Assembly (NCBI GenBank): GCA_963803145.1
Contig: CAWDLW010000044.1
Coordinates: 1-48,226 of the forward strand
DNA length: 48,226 nucleotides
Reading direction: 5' to 3'
From: Methanotrichaceae archaeon
Lineage (GTDB): Archaea > Halobacteriota > Methanosarcinia > Methanotrichales > Methanotrichaceae
Position 1 is the stretch's first letter; every line of letters begins with the position of its first letter. Shown one piece after another: positions 13,988 through 20,384 of this stretch. Under the pieces are notes generated by a model. The model saw only the letters and a list, made by a program, of their open reading frames with translations, had not been told where the DNA came from and made no database searches. The position numbers and the translations under genes are program-made.

Positions 13988-14914
13988 CTATTTAATTAAA
14001 TTGGGGAGGGGGTTATATGAATCAAAGAAAGACCTGTAATCCCCATATCCAGGCTCAATGAACTGCGTAGCAGGATTACAACCGCACCCTAGCCAATCAT
14101 CATCTCCTCTAGAGAAGTTAAATGTGCTGCGCCTTGAAATCCTCCTATCTATCGTGAATTTGCCCACATACTCTTCAGATGAGACTGAATTTCCAGATTT
14201 ATATTTAAGCTTGGTAGATTTATCTGAGATAGATTGCAGGCGGAAGGCAGTAGCAGAATTCTGCAGATCAAGCTCGTCTATATTTCCAGGGGTTACATCG
14301 GTTATTATCATCGCATTTGAATACACGCCGGCAAATCTAGCTGCTTTGGAGAGATTAGTTGCATAATAATCGGTGTATAACTGGTCCTGATCACTCTTAT
14401 AGTTATTTCTCGTATAGATTCCAAGTCCGCTATAATAGGTCTCATCCTCGCTTCTCACAAGAGTGGGTATGCTTTCGTTGATCTCAGCATAGTATTCAGA
14501 TTGAGCCTGTACAGGGACATTAATGATTGTGCCATTTGCCAAAGTAATCGTTCTGTTAGTCGCTGGTTGGTCGTCGATATTTTCATTTATATAAATCCAA
14601 TTCAATAAAGCTGTTACATTGAGGCTGTTTGTGTTTGAGAGTTTTCCTTGCTTAGCATAGGTAGTTTCCTTAACGCCGATGCCGGCGAACCCAGGGATAT
14701 TCACATACTTTGAGGAGTTTCCAGTGCCAGTACATTGGCCGTCTTCTCTGAAGTTCATTACCTCGGTGGATTGGCTTCTGCTCCACTTAGTGCCACTTAC
14801 ATCAACATTGATATTGTAGCCAATTTTCGCATCAGAATTAACAAGAACAATGAATAAAACTAGCAAGGATACTGCGGCAGGCAGCAGTATCCTACGGCTT
14901 CTAGAACAGCCCAT
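13988..14914 (-). CDS. secreted/membrane-anchored hypothetical beta-rich protein
   Basis: RSRR + hydrophobic N-terminus; Ser/Thr/Asn/Tyr rich; several N-x-S/T sequons; C-terminal DDDWLGCGC motif. Confidence 0.8.
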   Translation of the reverse strand: MGCSRSRRILLPAAVSLLVLFIVLVNSDAKIGYNINVDVSGTKWSRSQSTEVMNFREDGQCTGTGNSSKYVNIPGFAGIGVKETTYAKQGKLSNTNSLNVTALLNWIYINENIDDQPATNRTITLANGTIINVPVQAQSEYYAEINESIPTLVRSEDETYYSGLGIYTRNNYKSDQDQLYTDYYATNLSKAARFAGVYSNAMIITDVTPGNIDELDLQNSATAFRLQSISDKSTKLKYKSGNSVSSEEYVGKFTIDRRISRRSTFNFSRGDDDWLGCGCNPATQFIEPGYGDYRSFFDSYNPLPNLIK

Positions 14915-14932: not shown

Positions 14933-16096
14933 TTATCTATTAATCTCATAAGACATATATAACTCTTTTGAGACCCCTATAAACCCGAAAGGTGATAGAT
15001 ACAGCGGTCCAGCATACTTATCAGTTAACCCCTGTGCCTTGCCGACTATCCTCATATCCGTATTCCTATTTCCATTGTACGCTGTAACGGCTATCGTATC
15101 TTTTGAAGAGTCAACATTGCTGTCCACGAAGGTATTCCATGTATACATCACAGGGACATCGGTTCTGCTTCCATACTTTCCTTCCCCAGTTGTTAAGTTT
15201 GCATCAATTACTGAAGACTTTCCGCCATAAGTCATCGTGATCTCATCAACAAACCCACTTGGGGAATCCCTTGCAACTTTGCCTTGGCCATTAGAATCCA
15301 AAACATCCGCTGTATTCTTTATCAGATCTTTATACATGCAAGCATCGGTAACTACAGCCTCATTTATCAAGGTGCTCGGATTGAAGTAGTTGACATTGGC
15401 AAGTCCTGTCTCAATCGTATATGATACATCCGCCTTATCATCTACCTGCCGACCTGCGTTGAAGCTCTTTTCGTAGTTCAATTTATCTTTAGCAACTCCA
15501 TTGAATCCTGTTCCAAAGGTGCCATCCTTAGAATCAACAAGGATGTCATCTTCTAAATGTCCAATACCCCCAACTAGATCACCATCTCCTGCTCCGGCTA
15601 ATGAGTAAGGTTGCACTTTAGCACCATGTACATATTTTACGTTATCTGCAGCGATATTCTCAAATACAGTTCCACCATCGGTGAAGTAATTAGCTGCCGT
15701 TTGACCTGATTGCAAAGTGTAAGAGATTGCTGTTGCATCTGTTGCCTGAGCACCGGCTGCAAGACTCCGTTGGTAATCGAACTGTTTATCGGAAACTGCC
15801 TTGATATTTGCTCCGAAGCCGCCGCCTTCCCCGGTCGTTAGAATATGATCCTCAAACGAACCGAGTATGGATTCATTAGCCAGGACTGCATTCGCAGCTG
15901 CAAAAAGAGAGTCCCGATATATGCTCACCTGGTTAGCATAGCTCATATTGCTCAAGGCCATATCCTCAGTTACACTGCCTCCATCTGTATAATAGCTGTT
16001 ATATGTATGAACGTATCCCGAGGCGATAGATGTGATAGAGGCGATAGATGTAATTAATATGACGATAGAGATTAGGATTAATCTAATACAAACCAC
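14933..16096 (-). CDS. secreted hypothetical protein with ~100-aa internal repeats
   Basis: Signal peptide; repeats starting YYTDGG (aa 35), YFTDGG (aa 137), YFNPST (aa 237) with conserved ED-x-IL, FG and SYT elements. Confidence 0.82.
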   Translation of the reverse strand: MVCIRLILISIVILITSIASITSIASGYVHTYNSYYTDGGSVTEDMALSNMSYANQVSIYRDSLFAAANAVLANESILGSFEDHILTTGEGGGFGANIKAVSDKQFDYQRSLAAGAQATDATAISYTLQSGQTAANYFTDGGTVFENIAADNVKYVHGAKVQPYSLAGAGDGDLVGGIGHLEDDILVDSKDGTFGTGFNGVAKDKLNYEKSFNAGRQVDDKADVSYTIETGLANVNYFNPSTLINEAVVTDACMYKDLIKNTADVLDSNGQGKVARDSPSGFVDEITMTYGGKSSVIDANLTTGEGKYGSRTDVPVMYTWNTFVDSNVDSSKDTIAVTAYNGNRNTDMRIVGKAQGLTDKYAGPLYLSPFGFIGVSKELYMSYEINR

Positions 16097-16126: not shown

Positions 16127-16759
16127 TCACTCAGCTCCAGTGCCGACTACTATCTTCTCGCCTTCACCCCACCTACAAGTGACGCCGAGATCCTGATTGC
16201 TATCGGTGAAATATGCATCATTTTCTGTAGTATAGCCGATTCCATGATCAGTACAATAATCGCTTAGTGCCTCAAGATCCTGTGTGGGAATATTCTCCAG
16301 TGAAGAGTTGAGATTAACCGCTGTTAGATTCAGGTTATCCGGAAATTCCAAACTGCTTTTCCAGTCAGCATTGGGTGAGCCGGGATTGTTCGAATCTACA
16401 CTGATATCACAACCATTTTTCATAACAACATTTGATTCAGCAGGTAGATGTAGTGTATTTGCTGTCGTTAAGACTGTAGGATATTTCCGTCCATCCTGAT
16501 CGGTTACGACCAAATAAGCAGTGCTGTTCATTGATATATCTTTAACATCTACAACGGCTAGCCCAGCACCATAAGCCACATTTAATTGATTGGCATGATA
16601 ATAAGGTTCTTGAATTAGGCCATTTACTGATTTCAGGTCTGATCCGCCGGATAATGTAGCGTTCAATTTGTTAGTACTGTAGAAGGTATCTATAGCAGAA
16701 TGCCCCAAGCTACAGAATATCATCAAGATCAGCCCCATAAACAAGAGTGCTCTTTTCAT
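16127..16759 (-). CDS. secreted hypothetical acidic Asn/Ser/Thr-rich protein
   Basis: GGAGG SD before ATG 16759; signal peptide MKRALLFMGLILMIFCSLGHSA. Confidence 0.8.
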   Translation of the reverse strand: MKRALLFMGLILMIFCSLGHSAIDTFYSTNKLNATLSGGSDLKSVNGLIQEPYYHANQLNVAYGAGLAVVDVKDISMNSTAYLVVTDQDGRKYPTVLTTANTLHLPAESNVVMKNGCDISVDSNNPGSPNADWKSSLEFPDNLNLTAVNLNSSLENIPTQDLEALSDYCTDHGIGYTTENDAYFTDSNQDLGVTCRWGEGEKIVVGTGAE

Positions 16760-16832
16760 ATAGTTCCTCCGAATTGACATATAAGGAAAGGCGAGATTTG
16801 GAATCTCGTCTTTCTGACATAGCAATGCATGT

Positions 16833-17759
16833 TTATATATCAGTCGTTATTTTTGATTGCTGTAACACTGAGCCGCCTACTACACGGTTATTGTCTCCGT
16901 TCAAAGTTATATCATGTGTTATAGAATTGCCACACCCAAGAGCATTTGCATTCTCATTGATCGTCTGATATTCTACTGCTTCAGTCAGGCTGGCATCATC
17001 TGAGCTGATCGTAGCAAGCTGATTTATGCTATTGGCACTGCCTTCTGCCGCGGATATTTGATCAATTGTCTGCTTTAATGATGAACCATATAAGCTAGTT
17101 CCATCGGTATTTTGATTGGTTTCCTGGTATGCATTGTTGTTACCGCCGTAAAGGTTAGCGCTGCCTACCATCAGCTGCCATATCTTTGAACTGACCAAGC
17201 AGCTATAGTTCACACTTTGATTAACACGCTGGTCCAAGCTATTATCACTACCCACTAAACAGGAAGCCTTTAGTAGTGAGAACTGACTTAAATTGCTCGT
17301 AGTGAGCATATTATTATATGAATCCACAGAAGTCGTCTGAGATGCACTATTATTTGAGCCTACAATTTCAGCCATTTGAGTGGCTCCCTGAGATAAATTG
17401 CTTCCGACAAGGTTGTTGTATTTCGAATTAAAATCTATGTTCTGCCCTAGATAGTTATCATTGCCGGTCACGTTGCCTACAATACTGCAAACTTGTGTCA
17501 TGCCAGTTGGAGCATCCTCGGTACCTGTCAAGGTATTGTCATTGGCATAAGCATCAATATCCTGGCTAACATAGTTGTTGTTTCCCTGAACATAAGCAAT
17601 TGCATAAGTCTCCTGTGCGATATAGACATCGCCAGTAACGCAATTTCCTTGCGCCTCTTGATAGATGTCAACAGAGATCTGGTTGTCATTGCCTGTTGCA
17701 GCAGCTAATGATATCAGCAGCATCAAGCCAACGACGAGCATTGCTATATAATCATTCAT
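16833..17759 (-). CDS. secreted Asn/Gln-ladder repeat protein (curlin-like/beta-solenoid candidate)
   Basis: GGAGG SD before ATG 17759; signal peptide ending LAAA; eight ~35-aa repeats G-x-x-N-x3-Q...N-x-L-x-G...Q. Confidence 0.82.
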   Translation of the reverse strand: MNDYIAMLVVGLMLLISLAAATGNDNQISVDIYQEAQGNCVTGDVYIAQETYAIAYVQGNNNYVSQDIDAYANDNTLTGTEDAPTGMTQVCSIVGNVTGNDNYLGQNIDFNSKYNNLVGSNLSQGATQMAEIVGSNNSASQTTSVDSYNNMLTTSNLSQFSLLKASCLVGSDNSLDQRVNQSVNYSCLVSSKIWQLMVGSANLYGGNNNAYQETNQNTDGTSLYGSSLKQTIDQISAAEGSANSINQLATISSDDASLTEAVEYQTINENANALGCGNSITHDITLNGDNNRVVGGSVLQQSKITTDI

Positions 17760-18800
17760 AACTTGCCTCCTAATGGCTTTCCCCAACATCCCTCAAGAGG
17801 ACAAGCCCTTTCAGGAATGTTACAATAAGTTTGTATTTATCTTTAATAAAATGTTGCGAAATGTAATTTAGAAAACATAATCAATAGCGAAGTTAAGGAT
17901 GTTCGTTTTGTAGCTCTGATGCTGAATAATCATACTTATTTAAATCGATTGATTGGGCTTGATTCGAGCTTAAAATAGCCACAAATCTGGGATATTGATA
18001 ATAATACACGTACAATTCTTATACGAATAAATTTTTATTGTTATGAGATTTATAACAAAAAACATCCAAAATTAATCATGCAGAGTTTGAACCTAACTAT
18101 TTGAATAAAATATATCAGATTGCCTGATAGTCTGTTCAGCATTAATTATCTTGAACTATTCTGTCAAACCCTTATCAAACCATACCAAAAGCATCTAAAA
18201 TTATAGCTTGAATACTGCCCGTAAACCGTAAACTTTAATTACTATTAGTCAATTCCCAGATCAAGGATAGATATCAAAGGATTAAGACTTGCCTCCTTAT
18301 GAGTCTATCCTCCCCAACACTAAATAAATGTATTCAAGAAACACTTGGGAGGGCCTATTAGGCAAATAAGGAAATTTTTTATCACCCTTTCCTGCGCGAA
18401 ATTATAGTACAGTTGATAGTCAATGCTCTTCAATCATTATACCGAGATATGTACATAATCTAGAACTATAGGGGACTAGCCGATATTAGTTTAATAGATC
18501 ATAGACAAAAATTGCTTACAAATAGGGTGCTATCGCGACTGTAAGATTTTGTAAGAGATAATATAGATAGTCAGTATAGAGATATATGCACAAGCGGTTA
18601 ATCTGCCATAGTATAGAAAGCCTTTTTTGTATCATGCCGAATAAAATCTAACAAATTCACTATATGTGTAGGTCAAAGCAATTAATAATGGATAATATCC
18701 CACTTGTCCATGTGACTACCATACATCCCTATTTATTGATAAAATTAATTTGTGTTTTATTAATATAGTTGATTTTCATGTGCTAAGATCCTTATTATAC

Positions 18801-18846: not shown

Positions 18847-18925
18847 GTCTCAACTACGGCATATCCGATTATCTGAGCGGTTTATGAGAGTTCGAGAAGC
18901 GAAGGTTTGACACGGGAGGAAATTT

Positions 18926-19174
18926 ATGAAACGAAGCCGACATAAGATAATATCACAGATACTAGATATATGTGTTACTGGTGCAAGCAAGACGAGAATA
19001 GTATATCAAGCAAACCTAAACTTCAGAACTGTAAATCCTTACATAGATCTTCTAATGAAAAATGATCTATTGAAAGTAAAGCAGGGACAAACAGTACTAT
19101 ATGAAACAACCGAAAGAGGAATAAATCTTCTCGAGAGCTTTAAGCAAATACATAGCGAATTATCAGAACTGTGA
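18926..19174 (+). CDS. small winged-helix transcriptional regulator (COG3432-like)
   Basis: MKRS..II..IL..C..GA.KT.IVYQANLNF..V..Y...L...YETT.RG pattern; GGAGG SD. Confidence 0.88.
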   Translation: MKRSRHKIISQILDICVTGASKTRIVYQANLNFRTVNPYIDLLMKNDLLKVKQGQTVLYETTERGINLLESFKQIHSELSEL

Positions 19175-20019: not shown

Positions 20020-20093
20020 TTTAAGGAAAAAATGCTCGAATATAGCTAATAGAGCTGATAAAAGGAACTTGGAGATCTATAAGGAGACAAAAA

Positions 20094-20384
20094 ATGAAAC
20101 GAAGCAAGGATGTAATCATCTCCCAGATACTCGATATATGTGCCATAGGCGCAAGTAAAACAAAGATAGTATATCAGGCTAACCTTAACTTCAGGACTGT
20201 GAACCCTTATATAGAGCTACTTTCTAAAAATGGGCTGATAGAGGCTGCCCATGGGCAGACCGTGTATTATAAAACAACGCCCAAAGGAATTAAAATATTG
20301 AAAGAATTTAAACATATTCAGAACGAACTGCCAGAGCTATACAATAGTGCTCCTGCTCCAGCAGACGAGGGTCAGCAAGCGTAA
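20094..20384 (+). CDS. small winged-helix transcriptional regulator (COG3432-like), paralog of 18926..19174
   Basis: Shares ISQILDIC, GASKT, IVYQANLNFRTVNPYI with the upstream copy. Confidence 0.88.
   Translation: MKRSKDVIISQILDICAIGASKTKIVYQANLNFRTVNPYIELLSKNGLIEAAHGQTVYYKTTPKGIKILKEFKHIQNELPELYNSAPAPADEGQQA

Follow-up and report, generated by a model that had tools for sequence, protein, structure and literature searches.

We describe a previously undescribed archaeal family of putatively secreted repeat proteins, which are predicted to be β-solenoids built of a 35-aa three-stranded rung, are candidate functional amyloids and come with a putative operon and regulon of their own. The member studied here is encoded in the window, i.e., the whole 48,226-nt stretch of DNA from a Methanotrichaceae archaeon that was analyzed. 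We posit, with a probability of about 0.45, that this protein is a subunit of an extracellular fiber or matrix that would polymerize via the open ends seen in its structural models, in a manner like that of curli and Fap while being unrelated to them. Stacked-repeat functional amyloid fibers such as these are well known in bacteria, and, to our knowledge, the ring-forming sheath proteins are the only characterized archaeal cross-β polymers. If the proposal is true, a capless parallel solenoid would constitute a second, structurally distinct archaeal route to cross-β polymers. The Methanotrichaceae account for much of the acetoclastic methane production worldwide and are drivers of granulation in anaerobic reactors. 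As the family is small, repeat-modular and confidently folded in silico, it is easily tested and might be useful as a fiber scaffold.

Gene start, N-terminus and repeats

The solenoid gene occupies positions 16833..17759 on the minus strand and codes for 308 aa followed by a stop codon. The longest ORF over the gene extends from 16833 to 17789 (minus strand; 318 aa, designated P0001); all residue numbers for the protein given below follow this longer frame, where the genuine initiator Met is residue 11. The ten codons that open this frame (‘MLGKAIRRQV’; 17761-17789, minus) are a non-coding Shine-Dalgarno leader, AGGAGGCAAGTT, which is followed by the ATG. The same leader and ATG are common to all ten paralogs of the source genome, and two of these have no start codon upstream of it. 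Hence, the true start is at 17759, where an earlier note on this DNA, made from the sequence alone, had placed it. The Shine-Dalgarno motif GGAGG itself lies at 17766..17770 (minus), 6 nt before the ATG, and GGAGGCAaGtTATG is retained in the leaders of 10 out of 10 paralogs. The ‘IRRQV’ of the 318-aa frame was considered as a twin-arginine signal and rejected, the stretch being the Shine-Dalgarno leader; gene callers that favor the longest ORF would add to the protein a false ‘RR’ N-terminus mimicking such a signal.

The N-terminus proper is signal-peptide-like (17697..17759, minus): residues 11-31, MNDYIAMLVVGLMLLISLAAA, are followed by TG, forming an A-A-A|TG site. The hydrophobic core and the A-A-A motif are conserved in the family, with a mean majority fraction of 0.71 over residues 11-32. 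On the strength of this pattern and its conservation, the protein is probably exported and cleaved at AAA|TG. Alternatively, the hydrophobic stretch at the N-terminus could stay uncleaved and anchor the protein in the membrane, in which case polymerization would be limited.

The remainder of the protein, residues 33-318 (16836..17693, minus), comprises eight rungs of ~35 aa, which are directly apparent as sequence repeats and are also delineated in the AlphaFold2 model described below. The repeats start at residues 33, 69, 109, 144, 180, 215, 250 and 285, i.e., at spacings of 36, 40, 35, 36, 35, 35 and 35; all eight repeat heads given in the earlier note are thus present. A BLOSUM62 autocorrelation of the mature part places the period at 35 aa, with peaks of z 6.68 at offset 35 and z 4.9 at offset 36 relative to 200 shuffles, along with harmonics at 71 and 106. 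The overall repeat pattern takes the form G-x-x-N-x3-Q ... N-x-L-T-x-S-x3-Q, and the consensus within the protein reads G-x-x-N-s-x-x-Q-x-i-x6-N-x-L-t-G-s-x4-Q-x5-A. The second element that had been noticed earlier, N-x-L-T/V-x-S ... Q, is likewise present, as are its SNLSQ, SNLSQ and SSLKQ instances. The mean pairwise identity among the eight repeats is 24% and TRF detects no tandem repeat at the DNA level in the gene, which together indicate that the repeats are ancient.

The count of five cysteines in the mature part was also right; they are located at residues 50, 101, 177, 197 and 286 and might, as suggested there, permit cross-linking. Moreover, the protein consists of repeats only, as had been proposed, with no other domain: a Pfam scan of P0001 at E up to 1 returns only sub-threshold noise.

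Predicted fold, stacking and structural neighbors

AlphaFold2, run on a 15-row family alignment, models the monomer with a pLDDT of 90 and a pTM of 0.84 (the five models span 82.8-90). Residues 33-317 are modeled as β only, with no helix, extra domain or cap. The three-stranded rung and the lack of capping domains, both of which had been suggested from the repeat period and the bare repeat architecture, are thus borne out at the level of the prediction. In each modeled rung, a first strand of 15-16 residues leads, by way of a two-residue turn at the x-N of G-x-x-N, into a second strand of 11 residues; a D/N-N turn connects the latter to a third strand of 3 residues, after which comes a further turn (for example, strands E56-70/E73-83/E86-88 and E95-110/E113-123/E126-128). 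The turns are of 2 residues and the only insertion in the model is in rung 2. One additional modeled strand, residues 20-31, is the core of the signal peptide and would vanish upon cleavage. Given the i/i+2 alternation, the invariant positions of each long strand (Gln, Ser, Leu, Ala and Gly) point to a single side, which we take, from the residue pattern, to be the probable interior of the solenoid.

The earlier note had suggested that the solenoid ends could stack into fibers and had proposed AlphaFold as a check. In a two-copy model of residues 32-318 the copies stack in the register of the repeats: the three runs scored 0.52, 0.43 and 0.51 (median 0.51) as against 0.00 in all three controls. 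At least 87% of contacts are common to the runs, and the partner has a pLDDT of 78 or more. The score mark is attained by 20 of 30 solved homo-pairs versus 1 of 23 solved single chains in the calibration of the tool, which applies only approximately here given that a custom alignment was used. At the modeled interface, residues 283-318 of one copy meet residues 33-68 and 72 of its partner, with the best contact pairs being 296:44, 294:42, 291:40, 290:38 and 288:36. These correspond to an offset of 250-253, mostly 252, which is exactly how far rung 8 (starting at 285) lies from rung 1 (starting at 33). Accordingly, the modeled contact can propagate, with the second subunit taking the place of a ‘rung 9’, subject to the caveat that predictors may stack any free β edge. 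Both terminal rungs are conserved across members and unlike the internal ones, and could act as built-in caps.

A Foldseek search of the PDB with the solenoid model gave no match at E up to 1e-3. The exhaustive fold search VIA-align, among the 50 matches listed, is topped by four β-helices of the SufD/SufB type, namely 1vh4_A (Z 20.5, rmsd 2.7 Å over 235 residues), 9h78_B (Z 20.1, 2.6 Å over 235 residues), 4dn7_B (Z 20.1, 2.8 Å over 234 residues) and 5awf_A (Z 18.4, 3.5 Å over 240 residues). They stand well above a next group at Z 11-14, which includes the curli subunit CsgA (8c50_A), pectate/alginate lyases, tailspikes and adhesins. Structural Z scores of 11-14 are typical of any β-helix.

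The curlin repeat is a strand-turn-strand unit of about 19-23 aa. The resemblance of the G-x-x-N-x3-Q core to this repeat had led to the protein being described as curlin-like in the earlier note; membership in the curlin family is not supported by sequence, with 0 of 15 family members matching the curlin repeat HMM and a period of 35 aa, not ~22. As in CsgA and CsgB of the curli system, the protein is made of imperfect repeats only, with Gly/Asn turns, Gln/Asn/Ser ladders and a signal-like N-terminus. Further likenesses are the two opposed sheets and open ends of the model, the predicted head-to-tail stacking, and a structural gene located beside regulator genes. In contrast to the ~22-aa, two-stranded unit of curli, the modeled rung has 35 aa and three strands; moreover, unlike curli, the host of the solenoid gene is an archaeon. 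CsgA of Pontibacter korlensis (8c50_A) superposes on the model with Z 14.3 and an rmsd of 8.2 Å over 195 residues in VIA-align, and has E 4.6e-3 with a TM of 0.09 in Foldseek. No CsgE/F/G-like Pfam match was found among the three genes downstream of the solenoid gene and the 22 other proteins of the window.

FapC of Pseudomonas offers a second comparison. According to the cryo-EM report, FapC has one cross-β layer per imperfect repeat, with conserved arrays of Asn/Gln lending it stability; this layer exceeds that of curli in length and is of the Greek-key type, and three repeats alternate with linkers (PMC12392863). Going by this description of FapC, the solenoid protein is like it in having one imperfect repeat per layer and Asn/Gln arrays, and unlike it in having eight contiguous rungs without linkers. 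FapC gave no sequence match and is absent among the 50 fold matches listed, which is compatible with a likeness.

Distribution of the family and candidate roles

The family matches no curated family. A Pfam scan of the 15 aligned members at E up to 0.1 gave only noise below the cut-offs, NCBIfam matches neither the four proteins of the gene cluster nor three other family members, and a sequence-profile search of the PDB with the family gave 0 matches at E up to 10. The family is likewise absent from the limited collection of literature that was searched. A word-indexed search of 5.8 billion proteins recovered 5 relatives, and a HMMER profile search of 1.84 billion representatives recovered 71 clusters at E up to 1e-3 (34 of them at E up to 1e-30). 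Scanning the genomes of Methanotrichaceae with the profile, we observed a match in 21 of 105, spanning 11 of the 16 genera, with only 1 of 59 genomes positive in the largest genus. In a sample of 301 genomes from the phylum, none of the 292 from outside the Methanotrichaceae has a match; the other nine are the source genome and eight genomes of its own family, five of which match. A search of genome contigs returned only two loci in one MAG, including an 83%-identical copy, and no relatives were present among 51 matches in viral contigs to two peptide patterns of the close subfamily. Ten genomes of other Methanotrichaceae genera have distant matches of ~247-295 aa (E 1e-5 to 1e-8), which may represent a shorter sister family of solenoid proteins.

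The source genome (4.13 Mb, 51 contigs) codes for ten paralogs with protein identities of 34-71%; the nine other than the window copy are on contigs 8, 16, 27 and 42. All members examined display a signal-like N-terminus and rungs only, with no anchor, and the mature proteins are acidic and nearly free of proline. Their length varies from 273 to 648 aa via the loss or gain of internal rungs (7 to about 17), with members of 273-283 aa being one rung short and P0007 reaching 648 aa, and the first and last rungs are retained across this range. Five paralogs on contigs 16 and 27 possess 18-25 cysteines, and almost all of their rungs have one in the N-C-L-T element. Within a solenoid, such cysteines would stack as a ladder, which may serve disulfides, metal binding or only packing. 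Contig 27 carries five paralogs in tandem at 60889-67290, most of them with 20-25 cysteines.

The fiber proposal may be spelled out as follows. The chain would be exported, with its signal peptide probably being cleaved at AAA|TG, and would fold into eight parallel 35-residue rungs. These are predicted to form two long opposed sheets, one of ~16 residues and the other of 11 + 3, that would be held together by the Gly/Asn of the turns and by inward-pointing ladders of Gln, Ser, Ala and Leu. As neither end carries a cap in the model, the last rung could hydrogen-bond the first rung of the next molecule in the same register as an internal rung. The product would be an open-ended extracellular cross-β filament, which might serve as a matrix, as an aggregation fiber or as a sheath-associated fiber. 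Points in favor of this proposal include a family in which internal rungs vary in number while the terminal ones are kept, the recurrence of the gene block described below in three relatives, and a lineage whose envelope already consists of cross-β polymers (PMC11576556, PMC10593813).

A rival view, which we hold to be somewhat unlikely, is that the protein is a monomeric or partner-capped secreted β-helix acting as a rigid surface scaffold or adhesin and forming no fiber. Its targets would be partner cells, polysaccharide or mineral, and the paralogs would offer alternative exposed faces. Such a role would account for the strong variation of the exposed positions among paralogs (34-71% identity) against a background of fixed ladder residues, and for first and last rungs with their own conserved sequence. 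Likewise, many of the β-helices at Z 12-14 are adhesins or autotransporter passengers (e.g., EtpA, UpaB, PfbA, Awp1/3), and P0001, which has only matches under 0.8 in the ESM Atlas, has among the nearest one cluster auto-named ‘Adhesin’, at 0.77 and hence below the usable level. However, no rung harbors a cap domain, an anchor or a ligand-binding insertion, and the two-copy model passes its controls with an interface that propagates. The fold matches could also be read as pointing to a carbohydrate-active β-helix enzyme (a lyase or hydrolase) or to a secreted derivative of the SufBD iron-sulfur scaffold, given the SufD/SufB neighbors at Z 18-20 and the pectate/alginate lyases and tailspikes at Z 11-14. 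We consider either to be highly improbable. The SufD/SufB/SmsB core (1vh4, 5awf, 9h78, 4dn7; SUFBD_core PF01458) is indeed the best structural match, with both it and the solenoid model being flattened parallel β-helices of about 30-35 residues per turn, but the likeness is one of fold only. The Suf chains, of 289-410 residues and matched over about 235, have flanking domains, whereas the solenoid protein has the β-helix only; SufBD proteins are cytoplasmic with helical end domains, in contrast to the signal-like N-terminus seen here. A sequence relationship to SufBD was rejected, with hhalign assigning a probability of 0.05% to the comparison of the family profile with the SufBD of the same genome, and Pfam and the PDB profile search (E up to 10) returning no match. 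A right-handed β-helix enzyme of the pectate-lyase type is likewise not supported: there is no match to an enzyme family in Pfam or NCBIfam, and the minimal rungs with their 2-residue turns have no loops to form the groove of a substrate-binding active site.

The tubular sheath of these archaea provides the third alternative, namely that the solenoid contributes to the sheath or to its spacer plugs in a minor or accessory capacity, inserted in an existing cross-β lattice instead of making a fiber of its own, which we regard as decidedly unlikely. According to two reports, the tubular sheaths of Methanotrichaceae are built of cross-β polymers, and the SH sheath protein has at its core a pair of six-stranded antiparallel sheets that run on across subunit boundaries, with cap domains and closed rings (PMC10593813, PMC11576556). 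Like the SH proteins of Methanospirillum and Methanothrix as they are described there, the solenoid proteins are multi-copy and, by prediction, exported and cross-β-forming, with β-sheets that would carry on from subunit to subunit in a polymer; they too are putative envelope proteins. An accessory role would sit well with the confinement of the family to a sheathed lineage and with the Cys-rich paralogs (18-25 Cys), which suit a disulfide-held envelope. It would also accommodate two statements of PMC11576556, by which the plug and accessory proteins of the sheath are unidentified and the first-reported Methanothrix MspA (ABK14853.1) is present in few strains only and is possibly a secondary component. 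On the other hand, compared with SH by its published description (PMC11576556, PMC10593813), the solenoid model is unlike it in being parallel, eight-runged and capless, and a straight filament would be expected from it rather than a ring. Furthermore, with a match in only 21 of 105 genomes, and in 1 of 59 in one large genus, the solenoid cannot be a general part of the sheath.

Putative operon, promoter and candidate partners

Downstream of the solenoid gene, on the same minus strand, are three genes without a family match in Pfam or NCBIfam. The first, n232 (16127..16759), codes for ~210 aa from an ATG preceded by its own AGGAGG and has a signal-peptide-like N-terminus, MKRALLFMGLILMIFCSLGHSA. 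It is followed by n387 (14933..16096), a predicted secreted all-β protein with 22 homologues, and by n308 (13988..14914), the N-terminus of which is hydrophobic and for which weak paralogs are present at other sites of the genome. AlphaFold2 models n387 with a pLDDT of 81 as ~22 antiparallel strands of ~10 residues and leaves unmodeled an invariant C-terminal tail (..GP..P.GFIG.SKELYMSYEI.., residues about 358-387) that could be a strand-donation or docking motif. Fold searches with n387 retrieved no convincing solved fold (best Z 9.0 at an rmsd of 16 Å), with a loose similarity to porin and LptA sheets (LptA: Z 7.4, rmsd 3.8 Å over 126 residues), and the ESM Atlas gave no usable match for it. 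If the solenoid does form a fiber, these three putatively secreted and β-rich proteins would be candidates for anchor, nucleator or terminator partners.

On the other side of the solenoid gene, in divergent orientation, are two genes for winged-helix regulators of the HTH_45 family (Pfam PF14947), at 18926..19174 (plus; E 1.8e-23) and 20094..20384 (plus; E 5.5e-23). The other genes of the window, among them those for Cdc6, PCNA, GatE and the primase large subunit, are archaeal. The block of solenoid, n232, n387 and n308 together with the HTH_45 pair recurs in three relatives, one congeneric and two from other genera, whose solenoid orthologues are 83% (the congeneric one), 49% and 48% identical. 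In 4 of 4 genomes the block is flanked by yjeF and pst permease genes; as these flanks are the same in all four, shared ancestry of the gene order cannot be separated from functional linkage. The three partner genes are missing beside nine of the ten paralogs, and the paralog on contig 8 also adjoins a divergent HTH_45-like gene.

Upstream of the solenoid gene, at 17840..17897 (minus), is a family-specific promoter block of the form CTTAAC-N6-TA-TTGAT-N8-TTCTAA, which is followed by the TATA-like TTTTATTAAAGA. In an alignment of upstream regions, the ten paralogs share CTTAAY-N6-TA-TTGAT-N8-TTCTWA ... TTTTATTAAAGA along with the Shine-Dalgarno leader, even though the proteins are only 34-71% identical. 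A regular expression derived from these regions matches 7 of the paralog promoters and, across the 4.13-Mb genome, 2 further sites, as compared to 0.33 expected in shuffles; with respect to the paralogs the count is circular, and it carries information only about the remainder of the genome. A promoter that is shared by the paralogs and nearly absent elsewhere in the genome suggests a family-specific regulon. Thus, the ten paralogs probably form a single promoter-defined regulon, and the adjacent HTH_45 proteins are perhaps what controls it.

A more far-reaching version of the fiber proposal would make the solenoid the major subunit of an independently evolved archaeal counterpart of curli and Fap, i.e., a dedicated and regulated amyloid-fiber system of the Methanotrichaceae. 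Its parts would be the subunit, the three secreted accessory proteins, the two HTH_45 proteins and nine variants of the subunit, some with Cys ladders, and its fibers would serve to bundle filaments, to form granules or to make contact with syntrophic partners. We offer this version as a doubtful one.

Several smaller features of the locus may be recorded. The HTH_45 pair represents a tandem duplication that has since diverged, with 74% identity over 150 nt between 18915-19064 and 20083-20232, 1168 nt apart. Rfam has no matches in the window. In the 73 nt that separate the solenoid gene from n232 lies a hairpin with a 7-bp stem at 16792-16808 (minus), a weak match to the consensus that is possibly an attenuator favoring the first gene. 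Finally, a second copy of the leader, CATAAGGAGGCAAGT, is found at 18287-18301 (minus), 526 nt upstream of the real one. Neither an ATG nor an ORF follows this copy, which resembles a remnant left by a lost paralog or by duplication of the leader.
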